A stretch of DNA of 62,692 bases, the filler included, from Rhabdomonas costata (taxonomy: Eukaryota), in assembly GCA_019059605.1 (NCBI GenBank). It is 44 parts of 44 records of this genome, joined end to end, with 100 filler letters (N's around TTAATTAATTAA, not from the genome) between each part and the next. Parts side by side here need not be neighbours in the genome. Positions count along the whole stretch, not along the records: positions 34,248 to 35,575 come from JAHMHO010019264.1; 43 more parts are not named here. The stretch is one strand, 5' to 3'. The notes beneath the pieces were generated by a model that saw only the letters and a program-made list of their open reading frames with translations, was not told where the DNA came from and did not search any database. Every line of letters starts with the position of its first letter. The stretch's first letter is position 1. The position numbers and the translations under genes are program-made. Below, piece after piece: positions 34,141 through 56,670 of the stretch.

Positions 34141-34839
34141 AACAACCNNNNNNNNNNNNNNNNNNNNNNNNNNNNNNNNNNNNNNNNNNNNTTAATTAAT
34201 TAANNNNNNNNNNNNNNNNNNNNNNNNNNNNNNNNNNNNNNNNNNNNTCCAGCATAAACTGAACGTTAAGCGCGAGTTGCTGGAAGCTCAGGGAAGAGTG
34301 AACCAACAAGGGGATGTCCAGTTTGCGCGCCCGCAACAGGGTAACCAGGGGCTGCACAAGAACAAAAATGCACACGCAGACTAAGCCAAACCGCAACCTG
34401 TTAGCAGAGAAGGGAAAGGTGGTAAAGAGAAAGGATGACCTATGCAGTTCAAAACACTGGCTGCGAAACCGAGCCACACTAGGCCCACCATCGTTGCTTA
34501 GCTTTTACTCCAAGGCGATTCCAAGGCAGCGCAAAGCACCAGACTTTCCTGTCAACAAGGGCTTCGGTTCGCGGTCCTTACACGATGCCGTGCGACTATC
34601 CCCTCAGTCATCCGACATTCGGTCAGGTAGAAAGCACCAGCTGGAGCACACCTTAAGTCAAAGGAGGGAGACAGCTGCCGATTACTTACGATTCTTCAAA
34701 TCACTCAATTTGCCCTCAGGTCAACCTTTCACTCGGGGGCATTGGGAATGACGGGGCAGCCGGGGGCGGTGGTACCAGCTCCAGTGTGGAGTGGCCCGTG
34801 CAGCATAGCCGGCGCGGCACAGCACATCCTCCGACAAAC

Positions 34840-35442
34840 AGCTCGGGGTGTGGCTCCTGCTCGCAGCTCTGCAGCATGCGCTGGAAGCGACTACGGTCGA
34901 AGTTCACTTCCTTCCAGAGGTCGTTCAGATCAGCCTTCTGGCCCAGCTCCTCGGGCAGCCTAAAGACCTGCAGCTCAATCCCTGTCTCCATCAGGGTCCT
35001 CGCCAGCAGCCCAGCAGCCCGCTTCCCTACCGCAAAGGAGGTACACAGACTGATTTCCGGCTCACAGGAGCATTCCAGTGCTGGGGTACATCCTGGGTGC
35101 CGAATCGCAGGACTTTGCGCTCATATAGGAGGTTCTTGGTGCCGAAGCACCAAGTGTCGCAACCCACGCAAGAAATAGTGACCATCCAACTGCCTGTGGG
35201 TTGAGATCGTTTTATCCATTGACGAGAACTCCCCGCGGCTCACGAACATACAGAAGAACTCCCATGCACACCTGTGGTGTCCAGGTCGGGGAAATACAGC
35301 ACCCGCTTCACGCCAATGCCCTTCAGGTCTTGAATCAGGGTAGGAGGCACACTGATCTCCCCAAAGAGGCTAGCCACGTTGTCCACACCAGCCGCCAGGC
35401 AAGCCAGCACGCTGGGCTCCCCATTGGCCAGCACCAGCGTGC
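34840..35442 (-). CDS. Toprim-domain (DnaG/phage primase-like) protein, 2 spliced exons
   Basis: Exons 35442-35272 and 35026-~34840 join through a GTGTGC..TAG phase-1 intron: TLVLANGEPSVLACLAAGVDNVASLFG...KRVLYFPDLDTTG|KRAAGLLARTLMETGIELQVFRLPEELGQKADLNDLW. Confidence 0.8.
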
Positions 35443-38400
35443 CTGTGCACATGAATTCAAAAAGGGGGCAGCCCGGCACTGAGATTATTGCCACTTCAGA
35501 ATGAAACCAAAATATAAAGTATCCTAATAGTGAATGAATATTGAAAAGAACCTTACACCGCACACACGACTGTCTNNNNNNNNNNNNNNNNNNNNNNNNN
35601 NNNNNNNNNNNNNNNNNNNTTAATTAATTAANNNNNNNNNNNNNNNNNNNNNNNNNNNNNNNNNNNNNNNNNNNNTTGTTGTGGTTAAAAAAAAGCAAGA
35701 GTGCTGTGCGGATGCTGGTACTGTCACCTTAGCCTCCCCTCCCCCGGTCCCAACAAACACCCACGCACACGGCTGTGTGGTTCCCCGCAGCCATGGTCCC
35801 TTTGGCTGAGTCATGGCAGGCACTGACCCACAGCTCCCAACACACACACCCGTCCCCTTCCTTTTTTCCCCGAGTGAGAGAGTATGGCGGATATTCTTCT
35901 CCTTCTTCTTTTGGCCCGTCGCAGCGCACGGGCCCCCCACCGGTGACTCCTTGTTTCCTGTGCTTTGTGTGTGTATCCGCAAAACGCCAAGCACACAGAC
36001 ATACACTCACTCAACGAACATAACCTTTCCCAAAACGGTTCTTTTGGTATGGACCCTCCCCCATCTCCATCTCCAAGTTCCGGTGCGGGTGCGGGTCACT
36101 TGCTCCGAACTGGCGGGGAGGAGATCGTGGGGAGCGACCCGAGCATGTGGTTTTCTCACAGACACATACGCACATGCACCCCACGCGCGAACCGCCAACA
36201 CAAAGCAGCAAACAAACCGACCTCTGAACGCACACACACGCACACGAAGGGAAGCGATTCCTTCTATTTTGCGTTTAGGTGTCCCCCGTCCCTCCCCGTT
36301 CAAACGGCCGCAGCGGAAAGGAGGTGTGAGGCAGGTAGGGGTTGGGCATTGCCGAGAACATGAGAGTATAGATGAGGTGGGCGGGTGATTGAATTGGGTA
36401 AATGAGGGGTGAGCCCTCACAGTATACAGTATATCCTGTTGGTATGTGGGTTTGGGAGAGGGAGAGGGAAGGAGTGTGCTCCGGCGAGTTTTGCGATGGG
36501 GTCTGCAGCATTCGGAGGAGCGGTGGCTACTCGGTGGCCACTTCCACGCTTCCCAGAGGCTTTGCCCGTACCCCGTTTCTTACTCATTTGTGCTAGTGCT
36601 CCGCTTCGGCTGAGACCGGTTGTGGTTGTGTGTGTGTGGCTTTTTCACTATGAGGTGGTGTAGGGGGATCGGCGAGCCCCTGCAGGGCCCAGCATTGTGT
36701 CCACCCCATTGCTATTGGGACTAGAGAAAGACACACACACACACAAGAGAGAGAGAGAGAAAGAGAGAGAATACGCACATGCAGGCACACCTACACACAT
36801 ACCTACGCTAACGCAGTGGGATGTGCCCTTCAGCGCTCTCTTTCTGGATTCGTTCCGTTCACCCCCCGAGACCGTGGGTACCGCTGAGGGCCCTTTGCAC
36901 ACCTCTCTGTGCTGTTTTGCCTCCGCCCTTGCCTTCCGTTGGGTATATTTTGCTGTATTCACAGCTCTCCCCTCCCCGACCGCCCTCTCTCTCACACTTT
37001 TCNNNNNNNNNNNNNNNNNNNNNNNNNNNNNNNNNNNNNNNNNNNNTTAATTAATTAANNNNNNNNNNNNNNNNNNNNNNNNNNNNNNNNNNNNNNNNNN
37101 NNGTTTGTTGGGAGCAGGATTGGGGTGTTTTCCTGAATAGAAATTGAAATTGTAAGAATGAGCTGGAGTCGAAAGTAAAGAGACTACAAGTTGCATACGG
37201 GAGAAGTAGAAATGAATGGAATCAGAAAATTCTGAATTGGGTTGTTGGCGTCTATTTTGTGTATATATATATTGGGATGTCTGTTGACGCCCGAGTTATG
37301 TTGTGTTGTTAAGTTGTATTTGATTGCTTGGGTGGACAGCGCGGATGCTTAAACGACATCTTGGGGGAGTGTTCATCTCGTCCGTTTTGCTTGCCTATCG
37401 GTTTCTGCGCATCAGAGCTCTCCTTTGTTGCTGCCTTTGGGCTTGCCTCTTGGGCTCTGGCGTCCTAAGTTTTTGTAGTTTTTGTAGTTGGGAGGGGTGG
37501 CAGACGGTGCCGTTGACCCCTCTGCCCTTCGGCACGCTTGGCCACCTGAGGGTAGATTTGGCTCGGATCGACTCGAATGAATTCAGCACATGGTGCGGGG
37601 GAAGCGGCTGCGGGGCCCGTGGTGTTGTACACCGTCCCAGAGCTTGAGCCCGAGCCTCCAGATGGTGGTGCCCCTGCACCTGCAGCGGCTGCTGTCGAGG
37701 TTGCAATGCCTCCCGAATTCCCCACGATCCATTTCTGACGCGTTTTCGCTCTTTGGCGGTTGGTGTAATGGGAACCACCTTCTGAAAATTATTGAAGCGT
37801 GAGGGGATTTTGGGATCCCAACTGCAGTTGAATCCAGTTTTTACCGTCCGTTTACCGCCGGTAATGTATGATTTCCGAGTGCTGTGTGTGTGACGGCTTT
37901 TGCCGCCGACGTCCGCTTTGCAGCAGAGTTAAGGTGTCATATACTCCCTATATCAACCACCACAACCGAAATGCCGTGGGGTCACGGCTGCTCTCGTTCT
38001 TTTATGGAATTGAATTTGACCCTGAAAAGTCAGTGAGGCATCATAAAAAATTAATCTTATAAAAAGCAAAGTGAACTCTGCTTCGAACGTGCAAGAGGCT
38101 ATTTTGCCGCAGTATATTCACACGTGAGATTTTGCTCACTATTACCAATCCTTTCTGTCGGATCTGGGTTCGCAGAGGGTATGCTTTTGTTCAGGCTAGA
38201 TCTGCGGAATAAGATCAATCTGACGTGGTAGTTTCGAATGCGCATGTTTCTAGACGTGCAGTTTTCATACATTAACTGCAGTGAGCGCCATACCGCAGAG
38301 CTGCACAGCTGTGGTCTGCCATGAACCCTATTTCTGAGCTGGCCTTTCCGGGCAATGCACCCATTGTCTGCTGGTTTGGTTGTTGGGAACTTGTTCAGGG

Positions 38401-39957: not shown

Positions 39958-40152
39958 TACTGGGACCGGGCCCTGAAGTACTGAGCGAAGACGGACGACG
40001 GACTGCTCCATAGCGCCCTGGCGAACGAGATCTCCCCGTCCTGCTTCGTGATATTCCCTCTGGAGGTGATCCAAGAGACAAGTACAAGTGCTGCCTCCCA
40101 CGCGAGAACTACCGGGTCGGGCCTGAACAGCATGTGGCCCTGCGGCTTCAAG
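39958..40152 (+). pseudogene. Decayed GIY-YIG-like endonuclease fragment (possible Penelope-like element)
   Basis: LLHSALANEISPSCFVIFPLEVI, a frameshifted RENY.V and LNSMWPCGF resemble the GIY-YIG C-terminal half LH.A.....F...PLE....RE..W...LNS..P.G.N. There is an in-frame TGA at 39982. Confidence 0.5.
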
Positions 40153-40499
40153 CCGCCGTTCCGGGGCAGCCCGTCGCAGCCTGGGTGCCGAGGAAGTACC
40201 GCGTGCCAGAGCCAAACAGAGGAGAGCTAATCGACGTGGCCCTGGACCAGGTGGGACGCCAGGTCTCCACCTGGTTGAAGCAGCTCGAGACGCTCGGAGC
40301 GGACACTTTGAAGAGCCTGGGACAAGGTCAAGATCCGGGACCGGTTAAACGACGCCGCTGTGGCAAACCTGCTGAAAATCCTAACCCAAGCCCCAGGCCG
40401 CAGACGCGTAGGACTCGTTCAGCAGGGCACGCAGGTCCCAGCCCCCAACAGCCATGCGGGCAGGCTTGGGCCGCAGGCCACGCAGTCCTCCCAGTTAAG

Positions 40500-40895
40500 C
40501 TATGGCGCACGCACACTACCCTAGAAAAGCTCGTGCTCCCCAAGTCTACCACTGCGCTTTTCTTCACCAAACTGGAAATATCAAACTGTTTTTGGTCCAT
40601 TAAGGTTCCCTCTGCAGTGTGTGGCTCATTTGCATTTCAGTCCCCTGTCGGAAATCTCTCAACACGCCGCCTCCCGTTCGGTTGGTCATGGAGTCCACTT
40701 CTTGTGCACTCCACACAATTCACCCTTTCACCCCTTCACCTGCTCTTCCTCCTTTTTGGCAATACATTGACGCCAATTTGCTCGCGCACCCTGATCCACG
40801 TTCTCACATTCCACAAGCATTTTGCTGTCTTTCTGCTGGAGCAAGACGGGTTCTTACTGAACCAGAAGTGCAGTACCATTCCTGCAACTTCCATC
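40500..40895 (+). mobile_element. Degenerate reverse transcriptase of a DIRS/tyrosine-recombinase-type retrotransposon
   Basis: FFTKLEISNCFWSI...LPFGWSWSP, then after a frameshift WQYIDA (YxDD broken), then LLEQDGFLLNQKC. Confidence 0.8.
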
Positions 40896-41392
40896 AGTGA
40901 AAGACCCACATGCAAACGGCAAACAACAGAGTACTGTGTTCGTGCTGGTGCTGGTCGTCGAGTTCCTGAGCGTCAAGCCCGATGCGCTCGCGCCTGCTTA
41001 CATGGGTGTGGATTCGCTCTACCCGCCCTCCCCGAGCCTTCCCGCAAGAGACGTCACCAGGATGAGTGGACCTGGGATTCCTGGAGAGCTTGCAGCCCTC
41101 CTTCGCTGGCCGCCAGCGACGGAAGCCCGCTCTCCGCAAAGCTGTCAAGCTGTGAAGCTGTGTGAGTCCGACGCTCCCTATGTCAACGTCAACTTTAAGG
41201 ACAAGCAGAAGTTTTGGGATATGACTGGCATGATCTACAGCCAATTCGCAACCGGCAGATGGTTCGTCCCCAAGACCGTGAACAANNNNNNNNNNNNNNN
41301 NNNNNNNNNNNNNNNNNNNNNNNNNNNNNTTAATTAATTAANNNNNNNNNNNNNNNNNNNNNNNNNNNNNNNNNNNNNNNNNNNNTTTTGGT

Positions 41393-47862: not shown

Positions 47863-50505
47863 CCAGCAAAAAGGCGGAACACCGAGGGAACGCAAACAAC
47901 ACAAGAACAACCGGGGCCCGCCAGCGCAAAGAGAGAAAAAGAAAGAGGGAAAAAATGCCAGGTGCAGCTGTTTGCAAGTCGAAAAAAGTACTCTTGGAGC
48001 TCTTCGCAAAACGAATCTGCCAGGTCATATATAGCTCAGATACCACGGAAAGGGCTGCGGCAGAGACGCTTCTATATCGCTTTAGAGGCTATGAATGGGA
48101 CAATAAGGAAAACGATTGCAACCCCCAAAGATATCGCCAAATATTCCTTTCCCCCAAAACCCAGAACTTAATGCCTCGAGACCACGCATCCGACACTTTT
48201 GGTCTTCTGTACAGGTTGATGGGAAACGCTGTGACGTAAGGAACCCGCATCGGAGTTACCGTGAATCCGTGTGCACCACCTACTTACCAAAGACAGGGCG
48301 GAGGTCTCAACGCTAACCGCTAACCAGCACCCTTTTTTTTACTGTTTCAGGAAGCAAAGGAGCACAGACTTTTGGTACACGTGGCAGCGAAAAAATGATT
48401 ACAATCAGTACAACAAAAAANNNNNNNNNNNNNNNNNNNNNNNNNNNNNNNNNNNNNNNNNNNNTTAATTAATTAANNNNNNNNNNNNNNNNNNNNNNNN
48501 NNNNNNNNNNNNNNNNNNNNGTGGTGGGTTTCGCCTGCAGGAGCACACCTTTCAGGAGGGAGGAAGGGAGGGAGGAGGTAGGGAGGGGGGTGCCGAGGCC
48601 TTGTACAGCTTTGGTGCTTTGATGGTGCGCGCTTCTGTTGTTGCCCGTGTCTAAGCCAAATTTGAACAAGCAGCTCCCGGTGACCCTTCTCGTCCGCGGC
48701 TGCTGCTTGGCTTTCTCCTGCTGACTTGTACTGCTGCTCCTTTTGCTGATGTTGGTGAGCTTTGGATACTCTGCATTCACATGGGACGGGACGAAATGCA
48801 AAAAAAAGGTGCAGAGGGGTGGTGCGGAAGTCCCTTTCTTAAAACACCATTTTGTTTCAAATTACATGTAATCTGGCGTGTCTGTTTTTGAACTGGGACA
48901 GTTTTAAATCATCGTACACTGGTCTCTTCTGAGAGCGTTTCTTCTTTCTCAAAGTCTTCCAGATGGAGTCAGACAGACCGTGTTAGGCGGCAGCGGTTTC
49001 CTTCGTGAACAATAACTCCAAACCGCGAGAATAATTGATGCAGCATTTTCCTGCCTCTTTTGCAGCTTAAACACTGTTGTTTGTTTGTTTTGCATTTATG
49101 GAAATCGCATGAACTCCGCTACTTCGCCGCATAAAGGTGTGTGTGTGTGTGTCCAATGCCAACACCCATGCACAGCGCGTTTTACCTGTGTACGCATGGG
49201 CCCCTCTCTCTTTCTCTCGGTTGTTCACCGCCTCGGCGCCTTGTTCTTATTTCGCTACCAATTGTACGGTGTTGTTAAGTTGGTGAGACGTTCCTGTTGT
49301 TTGCATTAACTCATGCCTCTTGGCGGCATACAAGTGGGAGCTAGGAGATTGCAGCTTTTCCCCGTTCAGTTCAAGTTCATTGTTCAGCTTGGTGATAAGC
49401 GATTAAGGTTTCCAAACAGGTGTAGTGTGTGGGTGTGAGTTCAACCTGATCAGGCCTGACAGTATAGAGCGTGGTCTGAATGCCGCGTGCTGTTGCCTGT
49501 GGATCTGATGCTCAGCCTGAAAATTGCGAAACCCGATAATTGGCTTTCTTCTTCGCCAGCTTCCTTTATGATTGCTTGGCAACTAAAACTGACTTTGCAG
49601 GTCTTGTGCACATTACCTATTTGCAGGTTCACAACCCGACCGGTGCAATCCCAAAGGGCTTCATGATGGAAAGGAGGTGCGAGGCCGGGGCCCAGTCTCC
49701 TGGAGTCACGGCAAGTCTGCCCGCGTCTCTGTGATTTCCTCCTCCTCTTCCTGCTCGGTGTCGCCAGATCCCACTGTTGGGACTTCAAGAAGGCACCATG
49801 CTGCGGACGAATCACTCCCACTTTCTCGCGGTAAACACCACCCCCACNNNNNNNNNNNNNNNNNNNNNNNNNNNNNNNNNNNNNNNNNNNNTTAATTAAT
49901 TAANNNNNNNNNNNNNNNNNNNNNNNNNNNNNNNNNNNNNNNNNNNNTTGTGGTGTTTGCTGCAAGAACGATAATGGGACAATGCCCTTCTCATAGCCCA
50001 AGAGTTTGACAGCACCCAACCTCCTCTCCTCTAACCTTTAGAGGACACCCCCATTGCCCAGTGCTGTCCTTGTTAATTTTACCGTTTCTTCGTTTCTGTG
50101 TTTTACCCCTGCAGGTCCCAGCTGCTCTCTTCTTCATTTTCGATCGGCGTTCGTGCGTCCCTTCCCGCAAGTCGAATCACCTCTTCTTCTTCTGCGTGCT
50201 AGAATCCCCTCTCCCGGTTCACCACCTTCCTTGTTGCATTGTACGTAATTCAGCTCCTTTGGCTATTGATAGTTATCCATATCCAGGCCTGGATTGATTG
50301 GTCGACACAATTTGGGAACACGGGCGTGAAAGCCTATTTACCCTGAGTTAAGCAACATTTTGCTGCAGTTTGCAGCTAGAATGCTGTTGCGAGGTTCCGT
50401 ATCCTTCACAGCACTATTCAAAACAACCCCCAACAACGTCCATACCTCCCCCCAGCACTTGCCGGTTTCCCAACTCTTTCTGTGTTGTTCCACTCGCGCC
50501 CTGCA

Positions 50506-51274
50506 ATGCGCACCCTTCCGCTTTGGATATGCTTCGCCGTCGCCGTGCTGGCCTTCACCGGGGCCTTTACGGGGAGCCTGTGGAGCACCCTGAACCAGGC
50601 CGCGGTGTCCTCAGTGGACGAGCTTTCTGGGGTTTTCCGAACTGCTGTGATGCGGGACCTGGAGCACCGGCTGCTGAGCGTGCTGGACGGGATGCTGTTG
50701 ATGCTGAAGGACTGGCGTGCGTTTCCTGGGGTGGAGAACAGCACGGTGGACGATGTGTACCTGTTTACGTACCACGTGATGCGCGACACGCCTGCAGTTG
50801 CGGGAATGTTCTTCAGTCGTCCGGACGGCGAGGCGATGGGCTCGACTGCGTTGCCATCAGGAGGCATCGGTGTGGGCAGCCGGCCCGCTGCTGCATTGGG
50901 CGTTCGTCTTAACATGACTTCTTACAAATACAACGGGACCATGGGAAGTGCGTACCTCACCACCACAGGTTATGACGCCAGAGTGCGACCGTGGTACGTT
51001 TCAGCGGTGGAGGCAGGTCGCCCCGTGTTTACGTATCTGTACAACTCCGCCGTCACGACAATTGAAATGATCGCCCTGTCTACGGCGGTGTACAACTCCA
51101 GTAATGGTGTGGCTGCGGTGTTAGGCCTTGCGTGTCCATTTGCGCTGCTCACCAGTGAGCTTTCCGCGGCGCACCGGGACTTGCGAAGCTCCGGGATAAT
51201 GCTTCTTGTTGAGCAGCAGAGCGGAATGGCGATCGCAGCGACCTCAGCTAACCCTTCCTCCCTAAATGCGGACG
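50506..51274 (+). CDS. Membrane receptor with an N-terminal TM helix and a dCache_1 sensor domain (partial)
   Basis: TM helix WICFAVAVLAFTGAFTG, then MFFSRPDG, GYDARVRPWYVSAVEAGRPVFTYLY and STAVYNSSNGVAAVLG. Intronless over 256 codons. Confidence 0.88.
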
Positions 51275-52476: not shown

Positions 52477-54509
52477 TCGGTTCCGGCGATTGTTGTGTTT
52501 ACGAGGGGGTTATCTTGAAACAGAGCTCCATAGCGCCTGCGCTGCCTCATCACCTTGTTCAGTCCAACACTGCAGTTGTTTTTGTCGATATTGGGTCTGT
52601 CATAAAGCCAGCTGTGGTTCGACCAACGTTCAACAAAACTCCCAGCTCACTCCTACACAGCCTCGCTTAGACGCATTTAAGAAATTTCCTGCAAAAAAAC
52701 ANNNNNNNNNNNNNNNNNNNNNNNNNNNNNNNNNNNNNNNNNNNNTTAATTAATTAANNNNNNNNNNNNNNNNNNNNNNNNNNNNNNNNNNNNNNNNNNN
52801 NGGAAGCCGCAAGTCTCGCGCCAAAGCGCGGGCATCGAGAAAAGATCAAAGCCCACCACGGGGAGAACACACACAGAAGACGGAAAGACGAATCACTCCG
52901 GCACCTCATATGAATGCCCATCCGGCCGAAGCAGGTTTTCAGAGGGGCCGGAGAGACTGTTGCGCAACGCCCGGGAGCGCGTCCGGTGGAAGAACGCTGC
53001 CTGACTTTTTTTTCCACCTTTATGCTGCAACACCTTCGGTGTAATTCTTGTCTATTATTATTTGCTACCTTCGTGCGCATTGAGAGACTGAGAGAGTGGA
53101 TCTCTCAGTGCGCATCGTCACCGACATGATGATACCAATTCGATCATTATCAGCAGCCACAGCCTGAGATTATTAACGGGTGCAATCCATCTCAAAATTC
53201 GAAGAAAGCGAGCAATCACCTCAACAGCAACCAGCCAAAAAAGTTGAGGGACCGCATCGTGCGCGTCACTCTCCAAGACGGCAAAATTAACGGCAGGGAA
53301 GTGAAAACCAAACGAAAAGGAAAGAGGGAAGGCGAGGGGAGAGCCACCAGAAAGAATGCGGTGGAGGGAGGAGGGGTTGTCTCTGGTACGGCGCGGAGCC
53401 GCTTTTAGCGTAACGCCCCGCCGCGCACGGACAAAGCATGCAACAGCTACACAATTTTGACTCCAATTTCCTTTTTCACAATCCATGCAGAGAGGGCAGC
53501 GACAACGAGGACCACAAACAGTGCTTGGGAGAGCTCTAACTGAGGTGCTGGTAGTGGATGCCGGCAGGAGATCAGCGAAAGAGAGAAAAGGGAGGGGAGG
53601 TCACTGGACGTCAGTCCCCCAAAGAAGGAACTTGGAGAAGAGAGAATGCACGAGGGTAGAGCCCAATGAACGCATGAAAAGTGGAATCAAGCAAGGGCAG
53701 GACCTCGGTATCAAGAACATCTCAACCCTCCCTCCCTGCCTCCCTCCACAGGAGACCAGCACATGCTAAGGATGATAAAAGGACGTCGCATATACACACT
53801 CACAAACTCAATGGCGCGCGAAGTTGGAGAAGCAGTCCAGTCACCGCTGGGCGCGTGTACCCGCACCTCGCCGATGTGGGTGTCCGGTCAGGATTCTTTC
53901 GAATTCCAATATCGGTGCTTCGCAAAGACTCCGCAGTGGATCCCCAGCACACGAGGGGGCACATAGCCAGGGGAACCTCCTGAACAATGGCGGAATCATG
54001 GCTTGCCTCCTCGCGGTCTTGTTCGGAGAAGGACCCATGAACTCTATCTCAAACAGAGGCAGTGAGAGGAACAGAATGGAGATGAATGGGCACCCACACG
54101 CGGCCAACACAAGCACGATCCCACAACCNNNNNNNNNNNNNNNNNNNNNNNNNNNNNNNNNNNNNNNNNNNNTTAATTAATTAANNNNNNNNNNNNNNNN
54201 NNNNNNNNNNNNNNNNNNNNNNNNNNNNGGTTTTGGTGCGTCCGTCAGGAAAGTGGAGGTATTGAGTTGTGTGGGGTGACTGGTGGGTAGACTGGGCGGA
54301 TTTAACCCGCTTCCGCCCAAGTTAGCGGTGGGCACTTCTTCATTCCTGAGAGAGCCACCTTGCACCTGACGTGTGCTAGAGTCCTTTCTTGGCAGCCGCG
54401 GGTCCCTGTGCATGTGTCCGTCCTTTTTGTCTGGAGTGTGGGCGTTGTTCAGAATGCTAGTTTCGAGGGGTCGGGGTTTTCTTCTGAATACGGCGGTGTT
54501 GGTTTTCAG

Positions 54510-55082
54510 ATAAGGACGCTTAAGGAGGAAGGCAACAAGGCCTACCAGGCTGGGGACTACTCCACGGCGATTGCGCGGTACTCCAAGGCGCTCGAGCTGG
54601 ATCCCACACACCACGTTCTGCTGTGCAACCGCTCGGCGGGCAACCACAAACTGAAGGATTATGTGAATGCCCTGAAGGTGGATTCCTTTTGCCGAGGCCC
54701 TTGAATCCCCAGCTTGCGGTGCCTTCGGTGCTTCCCGTTCTTGAATTGTGGCCCAATACACAGTTCGCATGTTTCACGAAAGTTGTCAGACAACGGAACA
54801 AAGGGGCTAACCTAATGCTATCAGTACCAGTGGTGGCCTGCGCTGCGCGTTGTGCATGTGCACCAAATTTCGTTGGCTTTTGGGGAAGTATGTGCATGCT
54901 TGTAGGACGCTGAGCAGTGCGTGAAGCTGAAGTCCGACTATGCGAAGGGGTACTCACAAAAGGCGGCCGCACTGCTGAAGCTCGGGAAGAGGCAAGAGGC
55001 CATGCAGACGTACCGCATGGGCCTGAGTGTGGACCCAAACTGTGACTCAATGAAGTCTGCGCTCCAGAGACTCGAAGCTGGG
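54510..55082 (+). CDS. STI1/HOP TPR1-like co-chaperone domain, 2 exons
   Basis: Exons 54510-54677 and 54906-55082 give LKEEGNKAYQAGDYSTAIARYSKALELDPTHHVLLCNRSA..|DAEQCVKLKSDYAKGYSQKAAAL...GLSVDPN. Confidence 0.88.
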
Positions 55083-55827: not shown

Positions 55828-56670
55828 TCAACATAAACATCTTGACCACAACATTTTATCATATTGTATTTTTGAACCATTTGATAAATATATCGTAAAA
55901 CCTAAATCATGTATTTTTTTGAATCGTTTTTTTATTTTATTTTTATATATAAAACAATCATCAAAAACACCATCAACATAAATTTTATTACAACATGCTG
56001 TTATTTTACAAGGATATAAACAAGTTGTTTTTTTCTCATGAATATTTTTTATAATTTCTGCACTATTTTTTAGTGAATAAAATGATACAACATGAACTGA
56101 ATTATTTTTTATACAATTGTAGATCAACGAATTACAACAAAAATCACATATGTTATTATGATGATTAAATTTAAAATCAATTTGTGTATAACAATATTTT
56201 ATTTTTACAATACAACGTATTATAAAAGTTGCATATGATCCGTTTTTTGTTATACTTATCCATTTTGGTTTAAATAAATTTTTTAAATATAATTCTATAA
56301 ATAACAATACATTGTTATTTGATTTATTTTTTACTAAATCTTTGTAAAATGTCTGTAATATACTATCTTGAGGAATAATCACATCAATATCATTAGGTAT
56401 TTTTTTCAATATTTTATCTCTCCAAAAACCACCGAAAATTTTAAAGTTATTATCTAGTAATAATGTTTCACAGATTTTCAATTCATTTAATTTATCTCTT
56501 CTTTGTTGTTTTGAAAGTAAATTCATAAACAATGCACTTTTTACAGATACACCAAAAACATACACATAAAATTTTGAATTTGTTTGAGTTAATGTTAAAA
56601 GTGAACGAACATCCAAATATTCAATTATTTCACCGACTAATTCATAAACCAATAAAAGTAAATTAACCAT
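55828..56670 (-). CDS. F-box + class II nucleotidyltransferase-fold protein (giant-virus-like), 280 aa
   Basis: F-box-like LLLLVYELVGEIIEYLDVRSLLTLTQTNSKFY, then IFGGFWRDKILKKIPNDIDV (GG..RD..DxD) and DFCCNSL (cf. DFTINAL). Intronless and very AT-rich. Confidence 0.8.
   Translation of the reverse strand: MVNLLLLVYELVGEIIEYLDVRSLLTLTQTNSKFYVYVFGVSVKSALFMNLLSKQQRRDKLNELKICETLLLDNNFKIFGGFWRDKILKKIPNDIDVIIPQDSILQTFYKDLVKNKSNNNVLLFIELYLKNLFKPKWISITKNGSYATFIIRCIVKIKYCYTQIDFKFNHHNNICDFCCNSLIYNCIKNNSVHVVSFYSLKNSAEIIKNIHEKKTTCLYPCKITACCNKIYVDGVFDDCFIYKNKIKKRFKKIHDLGFTIYLSNGSKIQYDKMLWSRCLC

Follow-up and report, generated by a model that had tools for sequence, protein, structure and literature searches.

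In a 62,692-base stretch of DNA from the assembly of the eukaryote Rhabdomonas costata (GCA_019059605.1; hereafter the window, meaning the whole stretch), positions 34840-35442 of the minus strand carry a Toprim-type primase domain that is split by an apparent spliceosomal intron and whose closest relatives are bacterial. The best explanation, to which we give a probability of about 0.7, is that a primase or primase-helicase gene of a bacterial mobile element was acquired horizontally and, since equipped with introns, now resides in the eukaryotic nucleus. This explanation is carried by the homology of both exons to a single primase family, their collinearity with that family across the exon junction, the features of the intron and the retention of 14 of 15 conserved positions. 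An earlier note, made from the sequence alone, had described an intron-split Toprim pattern of bacterial or phage type at this place; its coordinates, motifs and homology are borne out here, and removal of the intron from the RNA is a prediction.

Structure of the split primase gene

The window is composed of 44 unlinked contigs of 1307-1331 bp each, which are apparently ordered by size and connected at 43 artificial joins by 100-base linkers (N runs around TTAATTAATTAA). Because the contigs are unlinked, those next to the primase locus are uninformative about it, and its true context is restricted to positions 34248-35575. The features of this contig are as follows (a slash marks an exon border; GC3 is the GC content at third codon positions).

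34248..35575, no strand assigned: carrier contig of the primase exons, 1328 bp, GC 0.55, with artificial linkers on both sides
35443..35575, minus strand: upstream segment, GC 0.41, pyrimidine run followed by cacag/G; family homology starts only at about 35443
35272..35442, minus strand: exon 1, 171 nt, first Toprim half (ANGEPS, FGE..P, DLDTT), GC3 0.75, matched by tblastn with the bacterial loci L004 and L003
35411..35425, minus strand: motif 1, N-G-E-P-S (family consensus [A/S]-G-E-x-D)
35279..35287, minus strand: motif 2, D-L-D (the Toprim DxD), both Asp columns conserved in 24/24 homologues and kept here
35027..35271, minus strand: intron, 245 nt, GT...AG, pyrimidine-rich tract before a ggtag acceptor, GC 0.53
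34840..35026, minus strand: conserved part of exon 2, second Toprim half (G..A..LA..L, LPEELGQKADLNDLW, FD...F, L..C), GC3 0.82
34914..34937, minus strand: motif 3, K-A-D-L-N-D-L-W (family consensus K-G-D-I-N-D-L-W)
34716..34839, minus strand: continuation of the exon-2 frame, 41 codons, Pro/Ala-rich, to a TGA at 34718-34716, GC3 0.66

Exon 1 is bordered by an acceptor (...tgtgcacag/G) and a donor (ACAG/gtgtgc), and exon 2 encodes, from 35026 onwards, G-K-R-A-A-G..., L-P-E-E-L-G-Q-K-A-D-L-N-D-L-W, F-D...F and L..C. Together, the segments 35442-35272 and 35026 to about 34840 are predicted to encode one gap-free Toprim domain. Joining 35272 to 35026 creates D-L-D-T-T-G-K-R-A-A, which has the DxDxxGxxxA spacing of the homologues covering that stretch. 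Eight GT/AG pairs near the junction restore the frame, and only 35271/35027 yields gap-free family spacing. The 3' end of the intron reads ...cctcctttgcggtag, and stop codons are present in all three of its frames.

The outer limits of the two exons are less sharply defined. The upstream segment is probably the 3' end of another intron; should translation start at the ATG at 35452, it would instead be a 5' leader. At the other end, position 34840, taken in the earlier note as the end of the exon, holds up as one possible donor (GCT/gtttgt), but no stop occurs for another 41 codons, until the TGA. This continuation may encode a linker or the C-terminus, or it may be intronic; it has no similarity to the homologues, which carry a variable linker after L..C. 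The contig runs 468 nt past the stop of the exon-2 frame, and neither the family profile described below nor tblastn with seven homologues detected further exons on the contig or elsewhere in the window.

Judged from its sequence features, the interruption is best read as a spliceosomal intron. Its GT..AG ends, pyrimidine tract and length all resemble those of an intron of about 226 nt in a TPR gene on another contig, which provides an internal example of intron style in this genome. That gene (Hop/STI1-like, 54480-55080, plus strand) is interrupted at about 54680-54905, with borders AAG/gtggat ... gcttgtag/GAC. In-silico removal of the 245 nt restores both the frame and the collinearity, leaving no gap at the junction against L003 and L004, the two closest bacterial relatives. 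The composition of the locus is also host-like, with exon GC3 values of 0.75 and 0.82 compared with 0.74 and 0.78 in the TPR exons, and GC of 0.53 in the intron and 0.41 in the upstream segment.

These features bear on whether the contig is a bacterial or phage contaminant, in which the 245 nt would be a self-splicing intron, an insertion or a frameshifted pseudogene region. Every detectable homologue is indeed uninterrupted and of prokaryotic type, and group I introns can occur in phage replication genes. However, models of group I and group II introns gave no match in the window at gathering threshold and none on the contig at E<=10, where the sole covariance-model match was queA RNA (E 4.1, opposite strand); across the window, no Rfam family of any kind reached its gathering threshold. 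The folding of the insert is no better than that of shuffled sequences (z-score -0.77), and it has GT..AG ends, a pyrimidine tract and a size matching that of the TPR intron. Besides, exon 1 is itself preceded by an acceptor-like site, the second at this locus, which follows an AT-rich stretch. Other annotated contigs carry eukaryote-type genes (a PPR protein, the intron-split TPR gene and a protein-kinase fragment), and the source is therefore a eukaryote with conventional introns. We consider contamination very unlikely.

Homology of the two exons

An exhaustive HMMER search of 1,835,955,588 representative proteins with exon 2 alone (P0003, 62 aa) returned 18 proteins under the cut-off of E<=1e-3, with E values from 1.7e-6 to 9.8e-4 and identities of 30-48%. 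A family hidden Markov model (HMM) was built from 17 of them, after P0011 had been dropped as a repeat protein (2960 aa, ten matched stretches), and was run over the 2169 six-frame open reading frames (ORFs) of at least 15 aa in the window. The exon-2 ORF matched at E 1.1e-24 (84.0 bits, HMM positions 166-226) and the exon-1 ORF at E 1.6e-16 (57.1 bits, HMM positions 109-172), in collinear order, with the third-ranked ORF at E 2.9. The match of exon 1 is an independent test, because this exon took no part in finding the homologues behind the HMM.

Comparison with phages gave remote but true similarity. With tblastn, the exons matched a Microbacterium phage primase(/helicase) at E 4-5, inside its Toprim domain. 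The spliced product matched the Microbacterium phage primase/helicase with 23.3 bits, collinearly across the junction. When exon 1 was shuffled 300 times, the observed collinear score against the phage protein was reached once.

These results also dispose of a chance resemblance to Toprim in non-coding or unrelated coding DNA. In its favour, no Toprim model of Pfam, PHROGs or NCBIfam matches a single exon, no relevant PDB sequence came up with phmmer for either exon, and word-index protein searches with each exon gave no candidate at E<=10. The library matches that single exons did produce are weak and unrelated (PF08100, E 0.026; phrog_20142, 0.065; phrog_22262, 0.32), and single exons are too short for the curated libraries. 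Chance is refuted by the E values of 1.7e-6 for exon 2 in 1.84e9 proteins and 1.6e-16 for exon 1, and the 1/300 result of the shuffles points the same way; its probability is negligible. A word-index profile search found 17 proteins, including P0004 and P0019, which were already known, and 15 new ones; none of the new ones is informatively named.

Motif 1 and the conserved residues

The most unusual part of the domain is its first motif. In 24 homologues, the residue before the Gly of motif 1 is A in 16, S in five, N in two and E in one, and the residue after it is E in 15, P in five, A in three and M in one; the position two beyond the latter is D in 22 and S in two. A profile alignment to Aquifex DnaG sets E-G-y-f-D over a-G-E-p-D of the family, so that the DnaG Glu falls before the Gly. 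At that place, the canonical Toprim Glu (the E of EGxxD) is replaced by Asn in the window and by A, S or N in 23 of 24 homologues; 15 of the 24, like the window, carry Glu two residues further along (G-E). The family motif is xGExD, not EGxxD.

The combination of N before Gly and S at the end belongs to L003 and L004, which both read A-N-G-E-P-S, identical to the window. Since these two closest bacterial relatives share the motif, NGEPS is a trait of a bacterial subclade that was inherited with the gene, and not a product of decay in the eukaryote. The earlier description of an altered first motif is thereby upheld as far as NGEPS and the missing canonical Glu are concerned, but not in the sense of an alteration within the eukaryote.

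Outside motif 1, conservation is nearly complete, and the DxD and KADLND elements are retained as had been proposed. The D, L and W columns of motif 3 are conserved in 24/24, 24/24 and 23/24 homologues, respectively, and all three are kept in the window. Among the columns conserved in at least 90% of the 24 homologues, 14 of 15 are kept, the exception being the Asp-to-Ser change in motif 1 that is common to L003 and L004 (one extra column was discounted, in which MAFFT had placed the first Met of P0001 on start codons). The intact frame and the other conserved residues argue for continued selection on the fold and on a putative metal site.

The bacterial primase family and its architectures

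The members of this family combine a primase module with diverse helicases. A Pfam Toprim family (Toprim_2, Toprim_3 or Toprim_4) was recognized in nine of the 18 exon-2 matches, and a helicase or ATPase module in 11 (D5_N plus DUF5906 in four; DUF3987, DnaB_C and AAA_25 in two each; DUF927 in one). The CHC2 zinc ribbon was found in four of the 18 and lies C-terminal to Toprim in three of these. In the alignment, a CHC2 ribbon (CPFH.D..PS...C..CG) follows Toprim in many members, such as P0005, P0006 and P0017, unlike in DnaG and T7 gp4, where it precedes Toprim; P0004, P0018 and P0019 have a zinc-ribbon-like motif at the N-terminus instead. Overall, the primase module is paired with at least six helicase types: D5-like, DUF3987, DnaB-like, AAA_25, DUF927 and UL9/RepA-like superfamily 2 (SF2). 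One source (PMC4889955) describes fusions of a DnaG-type primase to SF3, SF4, DUF3987, DUF927 or SF2 helicases as phage replication proteins and, among double-stranded DNA viruses, confines DnaG-like primases to bacteriophages.

A pattern scan covering one genome per prokaryotic species detected two loci, L003 and L004, on contigs of Anaerolineae (Chloroflexota) metagenome-assembled genomes (MAGs). Their ORFs are 1037 aa and, open at the 3' end, 582 aa long, and in both the primase module stands ahead of a SF2 helicase of the Herpes_ori_bp type (UL9/RepA-like, E ~1e-12). The helicase part of L003 matches RepA of linear-plasmid prophages such as VP882, phiHAP-1, VHML and MAR, and a gene with a ParB_N domain adjoins L004. 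The primase module of L004 has no match in phage or plasmid collections at E<=1e-3, and no further members of the NGEPS subclade were found in searches of viral contigs and metagenome contigs.

Within the phylum, six of 401 sampled genomes match at E<=1e-5, the source genome included. Apart from the source, a single genome gives a strong match; among the weak matches there may be ordinary DnaG proteins. The family is rare, sporadic and associated with mobile elements, as judged by its phage-type fusions, the RepA and ParB context and the few matches among the 401 genomes. The genome of L003 also contains a distant paralogue (L007, G002:C61:11293-14787) with 34% identity and a canonical V-E-G-E-T-D in a 687-aa frame, and another Chloroflexota genome encodes a 650-aa protein with N-G-E-P-A (L009, G388:C2). 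Motif 1 is unusually plastic in this Chloroflexota group. Full-text searches of the literature found no experimental study of any member of the family and no report of a eukaryotic nuclear gene belonging to it.

Placement in the DnaG superfamily

The spliced 118-aa product is 51% and 49% identical to L004 and L003, respectively, over 108 residues of equal span, with phmmer scores of 103 and 100 bits; P0015 comes next with 98 bits. A maximum-likelihood tree was calculated from 25 Toprim domains, with two short fragments left out and without rows for eukaryotic Twinkle or plastid DnaG. In this tree, the window sequence falls in a clade of 13 rows (support 100/99), where L004 and L003 are nearest to it by path length.

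For structural comparison, the first 248 residues of L004 (51% identical to the window product) were modelled by AlphaFold with a 26-row alignment, giving a pLDDT (predicted local distance difference test) of 90.7 and a pTM (predicted template modelling score) of 0.82. Foldseek searches of PDB with this model, which represents the homologue and not the window protein, matched Toprim-containing primases with a probability of 1.00. The top matches are the DnaG cores 3b39, 5vaz, 1eqn, 1dd9, 5guj, 4e2k and 2au3, at E 1.5e-10 to 3.4e-9 and TM 0.53-0.60; the best of them, 3b39, has E 1.5e-10 and TM 0.59 over 240 columns. They are followed by human Twinkle (7t8c, E 1.1e-6), T7 gp4 (4.5e-6 and weaker) and T4 gp61. 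The match to 3b39 indicates that the N-terminal subdomain and Toprim of L004 together form an RNA polymerase domain, of which the window contig holds the Toprim half only.

We also considered that the gene might be this organism's Twinkle or another organellar helicase-primase of the T7 gp4 type, or a plastid-type DnaG, with a degenerate motif. The fold superfamily is common to all of these, animal Twinkle is known for a degenerate primase motif, and structures of human Twinkle and T7 gp4 are among the Foldseek matches of the L004 model. At the sequence level, however, T7 gp4 reaches 0.2 bits against the spliced product, compared with 23.3 bits for the Microbacterium phage protein and 103 bits for L004. 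The family profile reaches DnaG chains in PDB at E 2e-3 to 3e-3 and T7 gp4 (1nui) at 0.044, and no Twinkle chain at E<=1. Moreover, the gp4/Twinkle domain order (N-terminal zinc finger, Toprim, DnaB_C) occurs in 0 of the 18 exhaustive-search matches. A Twinkle-like gene with a degenerate motif was rejected on these values, in agreement with the earlier impression that the gene does not resemble Twinkle. Membership in the Twinkle, gp4 or plastid DnaG lineages is thus most improbable, and the module branches separately within the DnaG superfamily, being neither an orthologue of Twinkle/gp4 nor a cellular DnaG.

Origin and possible function

Horizontal acquisition, which had been suspected from the start, is favoured because no relatives were detected other than primase-helicase fusions that lack introns, from metagenomes and from MAGs of Chloroflexota. 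The source would be a bacterium or its plasmid or phage-like element, from which the gene would have passed into the eukaryote; gain of spliceosomal introns and of a host-like codon composition would have followed. In the present gene, upstream exons would supply the N-terminal primase subdomain, and downstream exons might supply a helicase. Candidates for holding the catalytic metals, judged by comparison with the acidic residues of E. coli DnaG, are the Glu in G-E, the DxD pair and both Asp residues of KADLNDLW. The protein may still make primers, possibly inside a primase-helicase like its relatives, and could act in replicating an organellar or other extrachromosomal genome or a mobile element.

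A different outcome of such a history would be a eukaryotic mobile element, an endogenous viral element or a decaying remnant of the transfer, which was never domesticated and is without a function in the cell. The relatives do belong to the replication machinery of mobile elements, and this genome does contain mobile DNA, as a weak reverse-transcriptase-like ORF on another contig suggests. On the other hand, both exons are open, 14 of 15 conserved columns are kept, GC3 is host-like and an intron is present. There is also no second copy among the 44 contigs, which are a tiny sample of the genome. We regard this outcome as unlikely, though it deserves to be kept in mind.

Several points weigh against the acquisition of a bacterial primase gene as proposed here. 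The MAG contigs are short (3.6 and 5.5 kb), so that they may have been binned wrongly with Anaerolineae. The tree does not settle the branching inside the 13-row clade, and the sister link to Anaerolineae draws on identity and on the shared ANGEPS. Pfam, PHROGs and NCBIfam contain no Toprim match for either exon alone. Loss of the near-invariant Asp of motif 1 could mean weakened catalysis. The view of the gene is limited to 1328 bp; neither the contig nor the rest of the window yielded the N-terminal primase subdomain (marked by seven conserved columns between positions 20 and 78 of L004), a zinc ribbon, a helicase or a targeting peptide. Finally, splicing and expression are predictions from DNA.

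If the proposed acquisition is true, the gene is a new case of a replication enzyme crossing domains, and, if expressed, it would be a candidate part of an unusual organellar or extrachromosomal replication system. As a speculative extension, a bacterial primase-helicase of plasmid-prophage type (xGExS, perhaps still with its RepA/UL9-like SF2 helicase) might replicate the mitochondrial or plastid genome, beside or instead of Twinkle; we think this distinctly improbable. A precedent is given by the phage-derived PolIBCD+ polymerases captured by the mitochondria of kinetoplastids and diplonemids, as described in PMC7883662. Apart from the eukaryotic gene, the analysis reveals a rare bacterial primase family in which the canonical Glu is usually absent, the zinc ribbon often follows the catalytic domain and at least six types of helicase serve as partners. 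This family merits biochemical study of its own.

Other features of the window

Reading a gene neighbourhood across the linkers anywhere in 1-62692 would mislead, and the following observations apply to single contigs. One contig (55656-56982) has a GC content of 0.21, compared with about 0.5 in the other 43, and may have a different origin, such as an organelle, a symbiont, a virus or a contaminant. The sole match of its 280-aa ORF (55828-56670, minus strand) is a weak F-box (E 0.006). An open frame of about 300 aa at 50380-51273 (plus strand) matches a dCache_1 or methyl-accepting chemotaxis protein-like PDC sensor domain at E 1.5e-7, which is under the Pfam cut-off. Such domains are best known in bacterial receptors, and this could be another gene of bacterial descent, or the eukaryote's own receptor-type protein. 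The reverse-transcriptase-like frame mentioned above (383 aa, 40014-41165, plus strand; RVT_1, E 3.8e-4) is probably a retroelement fragment. Imperfect low-complexity tracts resembling (CA)n/(CACG)n are common across the contigs (e.g., 35840-36260 and 36700-36800); they are read as runs of T-H or C-V in several frames, swell lists of ORFs and are not genes.

Comparison with known systems

The bacterial primase-helicase family (P0004-P0028, L003 and L004) is the system most similar to the gene described here, with 49-51% identity to L004 and L003 in a Toprim domain aligned without gaps. The window gene and the type represented by L003 and L004 have ANGEPS, DxDxxG, LPxxLGxK.DxNDLW, FDxxxF and LxxC in common. 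They differ in that the window gene is split by at least one GT-AG intron and lies in a eukaryotic assembly, whereas these relatives are intron-less.

The architecture of L003 and L004, the nearest bacterial relatives, is that of the RepA type of phages N15 and PY54. According to PMC4889955, the SF2 helicases of N15 and PY54 carry an N-terminal DnaG primase domain and are described as confirmed replicative helicases. In contrast to that type, the primase part of L004 belongs to another lineage, as it has no match in phages or plasmids at the threshold given above, and no helicase was found on the window contig.

The core of bacterial DnaG is the best structural match of the L004 model and shares with the family the DxD and the later acidic pair. 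Unlike DnaG, to which the sequence link is remote, the family has A, S or N at the place of the canonical Glu in 23 of 24 homologues and often carries CHC2 after Toprim.

Twinkle and T7 gp4 offer a parallel in kind, namely a phage-derived Toprim primase encoded in the eukaryotic nucleus; Twinkle is described as widespread among eukaryotes and of phage origin (PMC7883662, PMC7050145). The window gene differs from them in having no detectable sequence affinity to T7 gp4 and, through the family profile, no Twinkle chain in PDB at E<=1, and in the structural ranking of its homologue they stand behind all DnaG chains. The Toprim-type primases that eukaryotic nuclei encode are, to our knowledge, Twinkle/gp4-like proteins, apicomplexan PREX and plastid DnaG. 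If the proposed origin is right, the crossing seen in R. costata would have taken place via a primase family other than these.

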